Shown: positions 1,009 through 37,678 of the stretch, piece after piece | Layout of the letters: every line of letters starts with the position of its first letter | Position numbering within the stretch: position 1 is the stretch's first letter | Source of the DNA: a virus | Taxonomy: Duplodnaviria > Heunggongvirae > Uroviricota > Caudoviricetes | Length of the DNA: 42,931 nt | Reading direction: 5' to 3' (one strand) | Virus record (IMG/VR): IMGVR_UViG_2541047844_000013 | Location: 1-42,931 of that record | The notes under the pieces: model-generated | The model's input: only the letters and a program-made list of their open reading frames with translations | The model's database searches: none | Told to the model about the DNA's origin: nothing | Position numbers and translations under genes: made by a program

Positions 1009-1083
1009 GTCCTCTTAGTTAAATGGATATAACGAGCCCCTCCTAAGGGCTAATTGCAGGTTCGATTCCTGCAGGGGACACCA
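1009..1083 (+). tRNA. argW: tRNA-Arg (anticodon CCU), prophage integration target
   Basis: 75-nt cloverleaf GTCCTCTTAGTTAAATGGATATAACGAGCCCCTCCTAAGGGCTAATTGCAGGTTCGATTCCTGCAGGGGACACCA; anticodon loop CUCCUAA; T-arm GGTTCGATTCC; terminal CCA. Confidence 0.9.
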
Positions 1084-1244
1084 TTTATCAGTTCGCTCCC
1101 ATCCGTACCAGTCCGCAAAATCCCCTGAATATCAAGCCTTCCGTAGATTCACAGTTCGTCATGGTTCGCGTCAGATCGTTGACAGCCGCACTCCATGACG
1201 GGTAAAAAGTGGATAAAATAATTTTACCCACCGGATTTTTACCC

Positions 1245-2402
1245 ATGCTCACCGTTAAGCAGATTGAAGCAGCAAAGCCGAAAGAAAAACCATACCGCCT
1301 TCTCGATGGTAATGGCCTGTACCTTTATGTCCCTGTGTCAGGGAAAAAGGTATGGCAGCTTCGCTACAAGATTGACGGTAAGGAGAAAATCCTGACCGTC
1401 GGGAAATATCCGCTTATGAGTTTGCAGGAGGCAAGGGATAAAGCATGGACCGCGAGGAAAGACATCTCGGTTGGCATCGATCCGGTAAAAGCGAAAAAGG
1501 CTTCGTCTAACAACAATTCCTTTAGCGCCATTTACAAGGAATGGTACGAGCACAAGAAGCAAGTATGGTCAGTAGGGTATGCGACTGAACTTGCAAAAAT
1601 GTTTGATGACGACATTTTACCTATCATCGGCGGCCTTGAAATTCAGGATATTGAGCCGATAAAACTGCTGGAAGTAATCCGCAGATTTGAAGATCGCGGT
1701 GCAATGGAGCGAGCCAACAAAGCCCGCAGAAGATGCGGAGAGGTTTTCCGTTACGCTATTGTCACTGGTAGGGCTAAATATAACCCGGCACCTGACCTTG
1801 CTGACGCCATGAAGGGATACCGCAAGAAGAACTTCCCGTTTCTCCCAGCAGACCAGATCCCTGCATTCAACAAAGCACTGGCAACATTTTCAGGAAGCAT
1901 CATATCGCTCATTGCGACCAAAGTTTTACGCTACACAGCCCTAAGAACGAAAGAGCTTCGCTCCATGCAATGGAAGAACGTCGATTTTGAAAACAGGATT
2001 ATCACTATCGACGCCAGTGTGATGAAGGGCCGCAAAATTCATGTGGTCCCGATGTCAGACCAGGTGGTTGAACTTCTCACTACGCTAAGCTCAATCACCA
2101 AACCAGTCTCAGAGTTTGTTTTTGCCGGGCGCAACGATAAGAAGAAGCCAATCTGCGAGAACGCGGTTCTACTTGTGATCAAACAAATCGGCTATGAGGG
2201 TCTGGAAAGCGGTCACGGATTCAGGCATGAATTCAGCACGATTATGAACGAGCACGAATGGCCTGCTGACGCTATTGAAGTGCAACTTGCACATGCCAAC
2301 GGCGGATCTGTGCGTGGAATTTACAACCATGCTCAGTATCTCGATAAGCGCAGAGAAATGATGCAGTGGTGGGCGGACTGGATTGATGAAAAGGTGGGCT
2401 AA
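1245..2402 (+). CDS. intS: Tyrosine integrase, P4 family (IntS-like); the upstream in-frame ATG at 1209 is less likely
   Basis: 385 aa from MLTVKQIEAAKPKEK; N-terminal arm-binding domain and C-terminal catalytic domain pattern; sits immediately 3' of argW as intS does in K-12 KplE1. Confidence 0.88.
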   Translation: MLTVKQIEAAKPKEKPYRLLDGNGLYLYVPVSGKKVWQLRYKIDGKEKILTVGKYPLMSLQEARDKAWTARKDISVGIDPVKAKKASSNNNSFSAIYKEWYEHKKQVWSVGYATELAKMFDDDILPIIGGLEIQDIEPIKLLEVIRRFEDRGAMERANKARRRCGEVFRYAIVTGRAKYNPAPDLADAMKGYRKKNFPFLPADQIPAFNKALATFSGSIISLIATKVLRYTALRTKELRSMQWKNVDFENRIITIDASVMKGRKIHVVPMSDQVVELLTTLSSITKPVSEFVFAGRNDKKKPICENAVLLVIKQIGYEGLESGHGFRHEFSTIMNEHEWPADAIEVQLAHANGGSVRGIYNHAQYLDKRREMMQWWADWIDEKVG

Positions 2403-21519: not shown

Positions 21520-21992
21520 ACCTCAATCTCTCTGACCGTTCCGCCCGCTTCTTTGAATTTTGCAATCAAACTGTCAACCTTATGCTCGAACTGACCGTAA
21601 CCAGCCCCCGGCAGTGAAGCCCAGATATTGCTGCAACGGTCGATAGCCTGACGAATATCACCGCGATCAATCATCGGTAAAGCGCCACGCTCCTTAATCT
21701 GCTGCAGTGCCACAGCGTCCTGGCTTTTGGGAGAGAAGTCTTTCAGGCCAAGCTGCTTGCGGTAGGCATCCCACCAACGGGAAAGAAGCTGGTAGCGTCC
21801 GGCGGCTGTTGATTTGAGGTTGGGGTTTAGCGTGACAAGTTTGCGAGGGTGATCGGAGTAATCAGTGAATAGCTCTCCGCCAACAATGACGTCATAACCA
21901 TGATTCCTGGTTTTCTGACGTCCGTTATCAGTTCCCTCCGACCACGCCAGCATATCGAGGAACGCCTTACGTTGATTATTGATTTCCACCAT
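21516..21992 (-). CDS. R: Endolysin, lambda R-type lytic transglycosylase
   Basis: 158 aa; near-identical from memory to lambda R ([51 protein letters not shown]...). Confidence 0.92.
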
Positions 21993-22299
21993 CTTCTACT
22001 CCGGCTTTTTTAGCAGCGAAGCGTTTGATAAGCGAACCAATCGAGTCAGTACCGATGTAGCCGATAAACACGCTCGTTATATAAGCGAGATTGCTACTTA
22101 GTCCGGCGAAGTCGAGAAGGTCACGAATGAACCAGGCGATAATGGCGCACATCGTTGCGTCGATTACTGTTTTTGTAAACGCACCGCCATTATATCTGCC
22201 GCGAAGGTACGCCATTGCAAACGCAAGGATTGCCCCGATGCCTTGTTCCTTTGCCGCGAGAATGGCGGCTAACAGGTCATGTTTTTCTGGCATCTTCAT
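21976..22299 (-). CDS. S: Holin, lambda S-type, with dual-start Met-Lys-Met motif
   Basis: 107 aa; [34 protein letters not shown]... as in lambda S107/S105. Confidence 0.92.
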
Positions 22300-22424
22300 G
22301 TCTTACCCCCAATAAGGGGATTTGCTCTATTTAATTAGGAATAAGGTCGATTACTGATAGAACAAATCCAGGCTACTGTGTTTAGTAATCAGATTTGTTC
22401 GTGACCGATATGCACGGGCAAAAC

Positions 22425-22454
22425 GGCAGGAGGTTGTTAGCGCAACCTCTTGCC
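22425..22454 (-). terminator. Candidate tR'-like terminator hairpin downstream of the tRNA-like genes
   Basis: 12-bp stem (one G-U pair) with a 6-nt loop; followed on the minus strand by GUUUUG, a short U tract, so only moderate support. Confidence 0.35.
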
Positions 22455-22541
22455 ACCCGCTTTCACGAAGATCATGTGTAGAAGGCCGCAGCGTAACTAT
22501 CACTGATGAATTCAGGATAGCCAGTGGCTACGGCTCAGTTA

Positions 22542-22617
22542 TGGTGCTGGTTAACGGACTTGAACCGCTACCCATTCGCTTACAAGGCGACTGCTCTACC
22601 ATTGGAGCTAAACCAGC
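22542..22617 (-). tRNA. Phage-encoded tRNA-like gene, predicted anticodon UGU (Thr)
   Basis: Minus-strand 76-nt sequence folds by hand into a cloverleaf: acceptor GCTGGTT/AACCAGC, D-arm GCTC-CAATGGTA-GAGC, anticodon loop CTTGTAA, T-arm AGCGG-TTCAAGT-CCGTT, discriminator A plus CCA. One mismatch in the anticodon stem. Confidence 0.55.
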
Positions 22618-22622
22618 ATGTT

Positions 22623-22697
22623 TGGCGGGACAGCGTGGGCTCGAACCACGATAAGAAGGTTAACAGCCTTCCGTAATGACCTTTATACGACTGACCC
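22623..22697 (-). tRNA. Phage-encoded tRNA-like gene, predicted anticodon GUU (Asn), degenerate D-arm
   Basis: Minus-strand 75 nt: acceptor GGGTCAG/CTGTCCC (one mismatch), anticodon stem-loop GAAGG-CTGTTAA-CCTTC, T-arm CGTGG-TTCGAGC-CCACG, then G-CCA; D-loop lacks the canonical GG. Confidence 0.45.
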
Positions 22698-22760
22698 AAA
22701 TAAAAAAAGCCACCGTTGCAACTTAAGAGTCACTAACGGCAGCTTACCTTCTAATTATGG

Positions 22761-23279
22761 CTAAATGGATAATTGCATGTCAAGGCTTTTAACAGCAACA
22801 TGCTTAACTTTCTCAACACGTTTACGCATTTTGAAAGCATTTTGCATTGGCTGGTACAAAACAAATAACGACGCTTTCAGGATGTCGTCAATTTCGTTTC
22901 TACAGGTTGCCAGTGAAGGTTTTCTCCATCCCTCGCCACCACGTCCACACATCTTGCGTGGCTTTGCAGTCGCGTGATAGTAGGATGCAATTGCTCGCTT
23001 AGATGAACCATGAGCGTAGTAGCTGAGGAGGATGCCAAAGGCTTTCTTGTCAATGTACATGACGGAATCGACGACCTGAGAAATCAACATTCCATCATCA
23101 TCATTACACATTGGCCTTGTCATAACTCTTCCCGGCTCTACGCTCTCCATGAACTTCGCTATTACGCTGCTCATGCGCTTTTCCAGACGACCTGAATAAA
23201 CCCATGCGCCCCACAGTTCAAGCCAGCCATTCAGCCACTCATGCTGTTCTTTGGTGAGGTTTAGTTCTCTTATGCCCAC
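22761..23279 (-). CDS. Q: Late-gene antiterminator Q
   Basis: 172 aa; last gene of the nin region, immediately upstream of the late leader and lysis cassette; antiterminator Q family pattern. Confidence 0.75.
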
Positions 23280-23938
23280 GCGCCTTCTCCCTGTACCTGA
23301 ATCAATGTTAGGTTTCCGCAGAACACTGCGCCGGTATCGATATACATCTGGTTGGCAAACTTGAGTGGTTTCACTGCTGGCGTATGACCAAAGATGAACG
23401 TGTCCGCGCCTTTGATTTCTTTCACGATCCCGTCTTGTGAGTTGCTGATTCGTTCGCGGTTCCAGATTACCTGCTGATGATCAACTGGCTTTCCAAACTC
23501 GTATTCGTCACAAGGATAATCGGCGTGGCAGATGACATATTTTTTATCTTTGCTCACCAGTTCGATGATTAACGGAAGTTCATCTGCTTTATGGGCAAGA
23601 GCTTTAGCCAGAATTTCTTTGTCGTAATCGAGATTAAAGAACCAGCCACCGCCATTAAGCATCCAGTGATTGACGTTTCCGCGCTCTGATAAGCCATCAA
23701 TCATCATTTGCTCATGGTTTCCACGTACAGCTCTGAACCAGGGGAATGTGATTAATTCCAGGCATTCGACGTTCTCTGTACCGCGATCGACCAAATCGCC
23801 CACCGAGATAAGCAGGTCTTTTTTGTTGTCGAATCCAATCGTATCCAGTTTGTTCATCAGGTTCGTGTAGCATCCGTGCAGATCGCCAACTACCCAAATA
23901 TTTCGGTATTTGCTGCCATCAATTTTTTCGTAATAGCG
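23270..23938 (-). CDS. ninI: Ser/Thr protein phosphatase NinI
   Basis: From [25 protein letters not shown]...: metallophosphatase motifs GDLHG, GDLVDRG, GNHE; matches lambda NinI from memory. Confidence 0.88.
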
Positions 23939-35900: not shown

Positions 35901-36085
35901 TTCCGGTAGAACTGGCGAAAACTCCAGAGTTAAGTCGATTAAAAAGAGAATATCACATTGCTGAGGCTCGTTACTGGCGTAAAGCGGGAGATAAATCAAA
36001 GAAACAACTTTGCTTATGGCAGGCACAAAGAGAGCGCATGAATGAGCGTGAGTTTCTTTCCTCCCCATCCGAATTACCATTCTGA
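35897..36085 (+). CDS. Hypothetical small protein
   Basis: Start at MIPVELAK (ATGA overlap with the kil stop; GGAGG Shine-Dalgarno). Confidence 0.4.
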   Translation: MIPVELAKTPELSRLKREYHIAEARYWRKAGDKSKKQLCLWQAQRERMNEREFLSSPSELPF

Positions 36086-36093
36086 GGCAAATT

Positions 36094-36774
36094 ATGGGAA
36101 CTGCGACATTAATACTCGGTGAATCTGGCACCGGAAAATCAACCAGCATGAGAAATATCAATCCAGAGGAAGCAATACTTATAAAACCAATAGGCAAGCC
36201 GCTTCCATTTAAATCAAAAGACTGGCTGGCATGGGATGCCAGAGCAAAAAAAGGAACCGTAGTTACCACTGACAAATGGGACGTAATAGTTGCCGTAATT
36301 AAGCGTGCTCACGAATACGGGAAAAGAATCGTTATTGTTGATGACTTCCAGTATGTGATGAGCAATGAGTTTATGCGCCGCTCAGAAGAAAAATCGTTTG
36401 ATAAATTCACTGAGATAGGCCGCCACGCATGGGAGGTGATTAAGGCTGCACAGGATGCACCTGATGACCTGAGAGTCTATTTTCTTGCGCACACCGAAGA
36501 AACCCCTATGGGGCGTGTGAAAATGAAGACTATCGGCAAAATGCTGGACGAGAAAATCACTGTCGAAGGCATGTTTACTATAGTTCTTCGCACCCTTACC
36601 CGCGATGACCAGTTCTTTTTCACCACGAAAAACAACGGTGCAGACACTGTTAAATCCCCAATGGGAATGTTTGATTCTAATGAGATTGATAACGATCTCT
36701 CTTTCGTCGATGCCACTGTTTGTGATTACTACGGCATCAATAATGTTCATCAAATTAAGGAAAACGCCGCATGA
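36094..36774 (+). CDS. Sak4-type RecA-like core ATPase (single-strand annealing recombinase)
   Basis: 226 aa; Walker A GESGTGKST at the N-terminus and a Walker B-like IVIVDD; size and position typical of Sak4. Confidence 0.7.
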   Translation: MGTATLILGESGTGKSTSMRNINPEEAILIKPIGKPLPFKSKDWLAWDARAKKGTVVTTDKWDVIVAVIKRAHEYGKRIVIVDDFQYVMSNEFMRRSEEKSFDKFTEIGRHAWEVIKAAQDAPDDLRVYFLAHTEETPMGRVKMKTIGKMLDEKITVEGMFTIVLRTLTRDDQFFFTTKNNGADTVKSPMGMFDSNEIDNDLSFVDATVCDYYGINNVHQIKENAA

Positions 36775-37381: not shown

Positions 37382-37678
37382 ATGCCAGCGCCTCTGTATG
37401 GTGCGGATGACCCGCGCCGCTGTTCCGGCAATTCCGTATCGGAGGTGCTGGATAAATTCAGGAAAAACTACGACCGGATAATGTCGCTACCGCAGGAAAC
37501 AAAAGAGGAAAAGGAATTTCGCCACTGCGTATGGCTTGCAGAGAAAGAAGAACGCGAGCGAATTTACCAGACATCAATCCGACCATTCCGCAAAGCCACA
37601 TATACCCACTTCCCTGAATATATCGACCCGCGCCTGCGTAATTACCGCTCACGCTATGGCGCTATCAGTAATGACTGA
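37382..37678 (+). CDS. Hypothetical early protein
   Basis: 98-aa track ORF; no family recognised. Confidence 0.45.

Follow-up and report, generated by a model that had tools for sequence, protein, structure and literature searches.

Two tRNA genes at the head of the late operon

Here we describe two tRNA genes in the viral sequence IMGVR_UViG_2541047844_000013 (Caudoviricetes), which we analysed over its whole length of 42,931 nucleotides (nt) and refer to as the window. Both genes lie on the minus strand, which carries the late genes, between the Q gene (23279..22761) and a lambda-S-type holin gene (22299..21976). In late-strand order tRNA-Asn comes first (22697..22623; 75 nt, anticodon GUU, discriminator base G73), followed after a 5-nt spacer (AACAU) by tRNA-Thr (22617..22542; 76 nt, anticodon UGU, with G1-C72, C2-G71 and A73), and the holin gene begins 242 nt downstream of tRNA-Thr. 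An earlier reading of the letters alone (the original prediction) had proposed these two genes, with cloverleaf folds and CCA ends, and had named ARAGORN as a check. Run on the whole window, ARAGORN called three tRNA genes, namely these two and a tRNA-Arg(CCU) (1009-1083, plus strand). Both members of the pair matched the Rfam model RF00005 over its full length, tRNA-Asn with 53.0 bits (E-value 1e-10) and tRNA-Thr with 61.5 bits (E-value 5e-13), where the gathering score is 29 bits, and the CCA end is encoded in both. Chance matches are excluded for the two genes, and on their existence, their anticodons and their place on the late strand between Q and the holin the prediction was right.

In tRNA-Asn a U13-U22 mismatch closes the D stem and a U4-U69 mismatch interrupts the acceptor stem, while G18G19, U8, A14, the T-loop and the 7-nt anticodon loop are normal. 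The degenerate D-arm that had been ascribed to this gene is therefore real but mild. The anticodon stem of tRNA-Thr has a G27-A43 mismatch, next to U28 and A42.

A cassette shared with phages 21 and Sf6

A 501-nt query over the region matched 181 phage records, among them Shigella phage Sf6 at 98% identity. Its record (AF547987) annotates, in this order, a late promoter, qut, tR', tRNA-Asn and tRNA-Thr, with the remark 'similar to phage 21'. The record of coliphage 21 (OL657228) in turn lists pR', a Q-binding element, the transcription start, a sigma-dependent pause element, a terminator (for which PMID 1704887 is cited), tRNA-Asn, tRNA-Thr and S21. The order of the tRNA genes, the 5-nt spacer and the preceding terminator are the same in phage 21 (39591-39746), Sf6 (36065-36220) and the window. 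With phage 21, tRNA-Thr is identical at 76 of 76 positions and the terminator hairpin is identical as well; tRNA-Asn agrees at 74 of 75, the sole change being C instead of U at T-loop position 60 in the window. The likeness has its limits, as the Q-binding region of the window (AATTATCC/ATTTAGCC) is of the phage-L/Sf6 type and its lysis genes are of the lambda S/R type, as in Sf6, and not S21.

The paper on phage L (PMC8022706) mentions that some P22-like phages have tRNA genes at this place, and names the Asn and Thr tRNAs of Sf6, located at the 5' end of the late operon. Among 5426 complete E. coli genomes, 369 also contain the pair, which the Prokaryotic Genome Annotation Pipeline (PGAP) annotates there. 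On these alignments, the tRNA pair is an already described cassette (Sf6 annotation of 2004; phage 21), the relatives of which include phage BTP1.

The tRNA genes follow the late terminator

The Q gene upstream (22761..23279, minus strand) is an open reading frame for a late-gene antiterminator of 172 amino acids, of the phage-21/phage-L type (Pfam PF06530, Phage_antitermQ, 90 bits). Its region has about 89% nucleotide identity to that of phage 21 Q, and gene 59 of Sf6 is annotated 'similar to phage 21 Q'. At its end a promoter scan located the late promoter pR' (22754..22783, minus strand), with a -35 TTGACA (22783..22778) and a -10 CATAAT (22759..22754) matching at 11 of 12 positions. The tandem AATTATCC/ATTTAGCC at 22774..22759, within this promoter, is a putative Q-binding element of the phage-L type, having been proposed as such for phage L (PMC8022706). 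Transcription would start near 22747, and the adjacent TAAGCTG (22746..22740) aligns with the sigma-dependent pause element of phage 21, an alignment that suggests the same pausing role here.

The promoter is followed by an intrinsic terminator of the late leader, tR' (22698..22745, minus strand). It consists of a hairpin (22745..22707) and a run of seven U (22708..22702), the first of which are taken up by the last two pairs of the hairpin, followed by AUUU. The RNA from 22748 to 22698 folds with -20.2 kcal/mol (z = -4.6), and none of 200 shuffled sequences was as stable. This element is annotated as tR' in Sf6 and HK75, and it has exactly the sequence of the terminator marked in the phage 21 record. 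A simple terminator scan of 22200-23300 found no terminator; it missed tR' because it does not model the bulge and the 4-nt loop within the long stem. The last base of the U-rich tail is 22698 and the first of tRNA-Asn is 22697, 3-4 nt after the run of seven U. The terminated leader would therefore be about 40-50 nt long and end just before tRNA-Asn.

The tRNA genes thus do not lie between the pR' start and the first intrinsic terminator, but right after the Q-controlled tR' and upstream of the lysis genes, as they do in Sf6 and phage 21. Only about 50 nt separate the inferred start from tRNA-Asn and 5 nt the two tRNA genes, which leaves no room for a dedicated promoter, so that the tRNAs would come from pR' transcripts that pass tR'. 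As tR' stands between pR' and tRNA-Asn, they would be outside the short leader and depend on antitermination by Q or on leakage through the terminator. Read-through from the early right operon is a possible further source. The arrangement resembles that of the lambda 6S RNA, where Q overrides the intrinsic terminator behind a constitutive promoter; it differs in that the leader of the window is of the short 21 type (about 45 nt compared with 194 nt) and the tRNAs are not part of it.

The original prediction had seen this differently, with both tRNAs between pR' and a tR'-like hairpin downstream of them and hence within the short constitutive leader transcript. The hairpin exists and is strong: it spans 22454..22425, is followed by GUUUUG (together 22419..22454, minus strand), and the 66-nt stretch around it (22480..22415) folds with -26 kcal/mol (z = -3.5). 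As a candidate for tR' it was rejected, since the real tR' lies at 22745..22707 and this hairpin is an element of the lambda type that precedes S. It is conserved in lambda (45031-45060), HK75, Sf6 (where the U-run is weakened to CUUU) and BTP1, 126 nt upstream of S in lambda as in the window, and is present with or without tRNA genes, of which lambda and HK75 have none. Lambda's own tR' (44753-44779) is distinct from it. The hairpin may act as a back-up or second late-leader terminator. Beyond it, the protein-coding part of the late operon starts with the gene of a holin/antiholin of the lambda S type (21976..22299, minus strand; an open reading frame of 107 amino acids, in line with the annotation of Sf6 genes 60/61).

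If the tRNAs belonged to the constitutive leader, they would be abundant in every lysogen without Q. The promoter pR' is not under repressor control in lambdoid phages, which speaks for such a scheme, as does the strong downstream hairpin with its short U-run. RNA sequencing (RNA-seq) of the BTP1 lysogen also appears to favour it, as the tRNA genes are apparently highly represented. In that transcriptome paper the two tRNA genes are kept apart from the list of genes above 100 transcripts per million (TPM), and the start of the late operon is placed right after them; its supplements do not list TPM values for the tRNAs. Excision of the tRNAs from the late transcript would fit this description, and the high rate of spontaneous induction of BTP1 can account for the signal. 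Against the leader scheme stands the stronger terminator, identical to that of phage 21, between the promoter and tRNA-Asn. It is also at odds with Kapi1, in which a complete lambda 6S leader and the lambda tR' precede the cassette, with SEN22, which has yet another terminator there, and with the presence of the downstream hairpin in phages that lack tRNA genes. We therefore regard a place in the constitutive leader as very improbable.

As a separate observation, a published RNA-seq signal of Kapi1 runs antisense to the tRNA genes, and for BTP1 a comparable one lies between the tRNA genes and that of the holin. A consensus promoter scan of the plus strand of the window from about 22300 to 22700 gave no promoter-like site.

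A slot with exchangeable contents

That tRNA genes occupy the slot after Q/tR' is known from many lambdoid phages. Upstream of the cassette, Kapi1 has a lambda-type Q with the complete 6S leader and the lambda tR', and SEN22 has a Q of a third type with another hairpin and its T-tract. In these two modules and in the 21-type module of the window, tRNA-Asn always begins 3-4 nt after the T-tract. From this comparison of sequences, there is a conserved tRNA slot that begins right after the T-tract of tR' and has been joined to three unrelated Q/pR'/tR' modules. Lambda and HK75 share the flanks with the window, and unrelated DNA stands where the cassette would be; they become homologous again at ...AACTGAGCCGTAGCC, right behind the CCA of tRNA-Thr. 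In the alignment, the stretch from tR' to the common leader ahead of S holds about 200 bp of unrelated DNA in lambda and the 159-bp cassette in the window. No tRNA remnants were found in the lambda DNA that occupies the slot. That of HK75 (1049-1107 of the piece examined) contains a fragment resembling a T-arm and acceptor (GCCGGTTCGATTCCGGC...), which reaches a sub-threshold 20 bits to the tRNA-like domain of transfer-messenger RNA (tmRNA), and ARAGORN called no gene in the HK75 slot.

Altered tRNAs were seen in two further phages. The annotated tRNA-Thr of JLK-2012 (279-354 of the piece examined) is a chimera, with a 5' quarter of the phage type and the rest like thrU; the 3' strand of its anticodon stem is changed (UCAUC), three pairs are left, and ARAGORN made no call. 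It is followed by a tRNA-Gly(UCC). In phage L the annotated 'tRNA-Leu(UAA)' (293-364 of the piece examined), again without an ARAGORN call, has the acceptor and the 5' part of the D-arm of the Thr tRNA and a different anticodon arm, and may be an arm-swapped or decayed derivative.

The Shiga toxin (Stx) phages, such as the Stx2c phage 2851, have ileZ-argN-argO in the same slot, after Q/pR'/tR' and before the first late genes. There the tRNAs are Ile/Met(CAU), Arg(UCG) and Arg(UCU), followed by stx2A, and they are classically seen as a supply for rare codons. Phage 2851 matches the window across the 21-type tR' and no further than about 24 nt into tRNA-Asn (query 15-87; 701-773 of the piece examined, with its tRNA stretch at 972-1215), which points to replacement of the cassette through recombination within tRNA-Asn.

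Outside the lambdoid phages, P1 and the N4-like phage AL25 also have Asn(GUU) and Thr(UGU) genes close together (1425-1578 and 637-886 of the pieces examined), in P1 adjacent and in the same order. Their context is unrelated, and their Asn genes are 58% (P1) and 63% (AL25) identical to that of the window.

Conservation of the tRNA structures

For the Thr(UGU) tRNAs of the window, Tbat2_3, JLK-2012, P1, AL25 and the host (thrU), 9 of 21 cloverleaf pairs are changed on both sides. In the alignment of these six, 95% of the cells are paired, compared with at most 52% in a control in which the partners were slid. The 27:43 pair is broken in exactly those three that come from the lambdoid slot (window/phage 21, Tbat2_3 and JLK-2012). 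Among seven aligned phages the changes in tRNA-Asn are confined to the D- and T-loops, and G73 and the GUU anticodon are kept; these differences are too few for a test of compensatory change. The earlier suggestion that this gene may be non-functional finds no support. In E. coli the identity elements are the GUU anticodon and G73 for Asn, and G1-C72, C2-G71, G35 and U36 for Thr; all of them are found in the tRNAs of the window.

It could be argued that the pair consists of decayed relics (recombination scars or attachment-site fragments), or that it merely provides RNase P/E signals that trim the 5' end of the late mRNA. The slot is indeed mosaic: the chimeric Thr of JLK-2012 and the swapped anticodon arm of phage L were both missed by ARAGORN, the match to phage 2851 stops within tRNA-Asn, and tRNA-Asn itself has two U-U mismatches. 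Yet both genes of the window are far above the Rfam threshold with their identity elements intact, and the substitutions are compensatory (Thr) or confined to loops (Asn). Of the 375 E. coli records that match, the majority show 95-100% identity across the pair. Moreover, a 2025 study (PMC12445682) reports that the identical tRNA-Thr of phage 21 (tRNA-Thr21), expressed from a plasmid, brought back ACA decoding in vivo. That the genes are relics or processing signals is, in our view, hardly credible.

Anticodon stems and the P2 Old nuclease

The original prediction had also suggested that the tRNAs might counter tRNA-targeting defences, and for tRNA-Thr the same study gives experimental grounds for this. 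According to this study, the nuclease Old of P2 prophages kills lambda-infected cells mainly by two cuts in the anticodon stem of the host tRNA-Thr(UGU) (tRNA-ThrU), at paired CNG motifs formed by nt 28-30 and 40-42, and it responds to the inhibition of RecBCD by lambda Gam. Phage tRNA-Thr(UGU), including tRNA-Thr21 and tRNA-Thr6, rescue cells from Old, whereas extra host tRNA-ThrU gave little or no protection. For resistance a changed motif has to be combined with a shorter stem, and for tRNA-Thr21 the changes C28U/G42A are given (PMC12445682). For the identical tRNA-Thr, the mechanism is thus already published and the feature already known.

The tRNA-Thr of the window has the UGU anticodon, the altered CNG motif and the short stem. 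At positions 27-31/39-43 it reads GUCGC/GCGAA, as does that of phage 21, so that 28-30/40-42 are UCG/CGA, the paired CNG is absent and G27-A43 is mismatched; the host thrU of K-12 reads ACUGA/UCAGU, with a paired CUG/CAG and all five pairs. Being identical to tRNA-Thr21, with the same C28U/G42A and the same shortened stem, the window copy is expected to be resistant to Old.

The partner gene departs from the host at the same place. The K-12 asnT stem (GCGGA/UCCGU, A37 present) contains a paired CNG motif, CGG/CCG; tRNA-Asn of the window (GAAGG/CCUUC, with AAG/CUU at 28-30/40-42 and five pairs) has none. The motif is likewise absent from the Asn genes of P1 (GUUGA/UCAAC) and AL25 (GUUGG/CCAAC), both with UUG/CAA, and from the Thr gene of AL25 (AUUGC/GCAAU, UUG/CAA, five pairs). 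We accordingly predict that tRNA-Asn is a second Old-resistant replacement. Of the two phage 21 tRNAs, the study tested tRNA-Thr21, for which rescue was shown. Another form of escape, from anticodon-loop nucleases through changes in the loop, was rejected: the loops CUGUUAA and CUUGUAA are identical to those of the host, and it is the stems that differ.

A side observation concerns the provocation of such a defence. An open reading frame of 98 amino acids (37382-37678, plus strand) matches the Pfam family Anti-RecBCD_p2 (P22 Abc2) with 206 bits. By analogy, this Abc2 homologue may provoke the very Old defence that the prophage's tRNA-Thr counters.

Codon usage of the late genes

The other role that had been suggested, supplementation of late-gene codon usage, agrees with a correlation in our counts. 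Per 1000 codons, ACA occurs 19.1 times in the late genes, 12.2 times in the early genes and 5.4 times in a host sample of 41 K-12 genes; for AAU the values are 25.0, 19.2 and 13.8. ACA is thus 3.5-fold and AAU 1.8-fold commoner in the late genes than in the host sample, ranking third and seventh among the sense codons by excess, while AAC is not enriched.

One may ask whether codon supply explains the pair on its own, with the tRNAs serving ACA/ACU and AAU/AAC in the AT-richer late genes and resistance to Old being incidental. Besides the excess of ACA and AAU, which is larger in late than in early genes, this view is supported by the low abundance of thrU, the sole UGU tRNA in MG1655 according to PMC12445682, and by the paper on phage L (PMC8022706), which explains tRNA-Asn in the same way. 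The Stx phages, whose slot holds tRNAs for rare codons (Ile, Arg, Arg), and the P1 tRNA-Thr, which retains the Old-sensitive motif, also fit. However, codon supply leaves unexplained why both phage anticodon stems depart from the host's exactly at the Old cleavage motif, and why the 27:43 pair was lost in the three Thr tRNAs of the lambdoid slot. Nor does it accord with the failure of over-expressed host tRNA-ThrU to give more than little protection against Old where phage tRNA-Thr succeeds. The host Asn tRNA, furthermore, reads both Asn codons, and the late genes show no enrichment of AAC. An explanation by codon supply only is therefore unlikely, though less so than the alternatives weighed above. 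With such heavy use of ACA, late translation would be especially vulnerable to the loss of tRNA-ThrU, so that the two roles reinforce each other.

The prophage and its host flanks

The window is, judging from its gene content, an Sf6-like prophage with host flanks, adjoining tRNA-Arg(CCU) and with Sf6-type terminase genes. That it could be phage 21 itself was rejected, as the cos/terminase end of phage 21 has no match in the window. After tRNA-Arg(CCU), where the integrase would be expected, there is an open reading frame of 397 amino acids (1209-2402, plus strand). The attachment site looks like argW, which is presumably used by Sf6 too. Attachment at argW has been published for Kapi1.

Probable role of the tRNA pair

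We consider it likely that the pair consists of two functional elongator tRNA genes, gated by Q through their position after tR', that keep ACA and AAY (AAU/AAC) codons readable by combining Old-proof replacement with codon supply. Transcription from pR' would fire constitutively, with most transcripts ending at tR' after about 40-50 nt, ahead of the tRNAs; in lysogens, leakage through the terminator may provide a low level of them. Once Q is present, polymerase starting at pR' would pass tR' and copy both tRNA genes, Asn first, into a single RNA together with the lambda-type leader and the genes for lysis and the virion. Host tRNA-processing enzymes would then cut out the tRNAs, which would need no CCA addition as their CCA is encoded. 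During late protein synthesis the tRNAs would keep ACA and AAY codons readable: they would stand in for host tRNAs lost to prophage-encoded nucleases that, like P2 Old, cut the anticodon stem, as the literature shows for the identical Thr and as we predict for Asn, and they would add to the supply for the codons over-used by the late genes, as the correlation suggests.

Several points weigh against this reading. The rescue by tRNA-Thr is partial (small colonies) and many tRNAs are cut by Old; host tRNA-Asn(GUU) was one of three comparison tRNAs and was cleaved more slowly than tRNA-ThrU, as far as the available text of PMC12445682 tells, and its standing as a substrate of Old is not firmly established on that text. 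Host tRNAs with CNG motifs seem common, so the match in Asn could be a coincidence. P1 provides a counter-example, its Thr gene (CCUGC/GCAGG) having a full stem with the paired CUG/CAG, and an anti-Old function thus does not suit all Asn/Thr pairs of phages. With regard to codon supply, GCU, CAG, GCA, GGA and UCA are equally enriched and have no phage tRNA. Finally, the start site is placed by alignment, and the expression and processing of the tRNAs are deduced from the anatomy of the region.

A bolder proposal, which we put forward tentatively and to which we give somewhat less than even weight, is that the Asn/Thr pair forms a two-part counter-defence module, in which tRNA-Asn, lacking both CNG motifs in its anticodon stem, would be a nuclease-resistant substitute for host tRNA-Asn, and that the slot after tR' is a hot spot where lambdoid phages swap anticodon arms in response to the tRNA nucleases of prophages. 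The recurrence of Asn(GUU) with Thr(UGU) in the unrelated P1 and AL25, and the chimeric or arm-swapped variants of JLK-2012 and phage L, can be cited in its favour.

For the annotation of the window, the tRNA genes are to be placed downstream of tR', and so under the control of Q, with tR' at 22745..22698 and the hairpin near 22440 as a separate element of the lambda type. What the analysis adds is the correction of their position to after tR', the meeting of three Q/tR' modules with the cassette at the T-tract, and the prediction of an Old-resistant tRNA-Asn. More generally, the pair offers a textbook-style case for temperate phages that carry one or two tRNA genes, and its published mechanism is the replacement of a host tRNA destroyed by the nuclease of a rival prophage.

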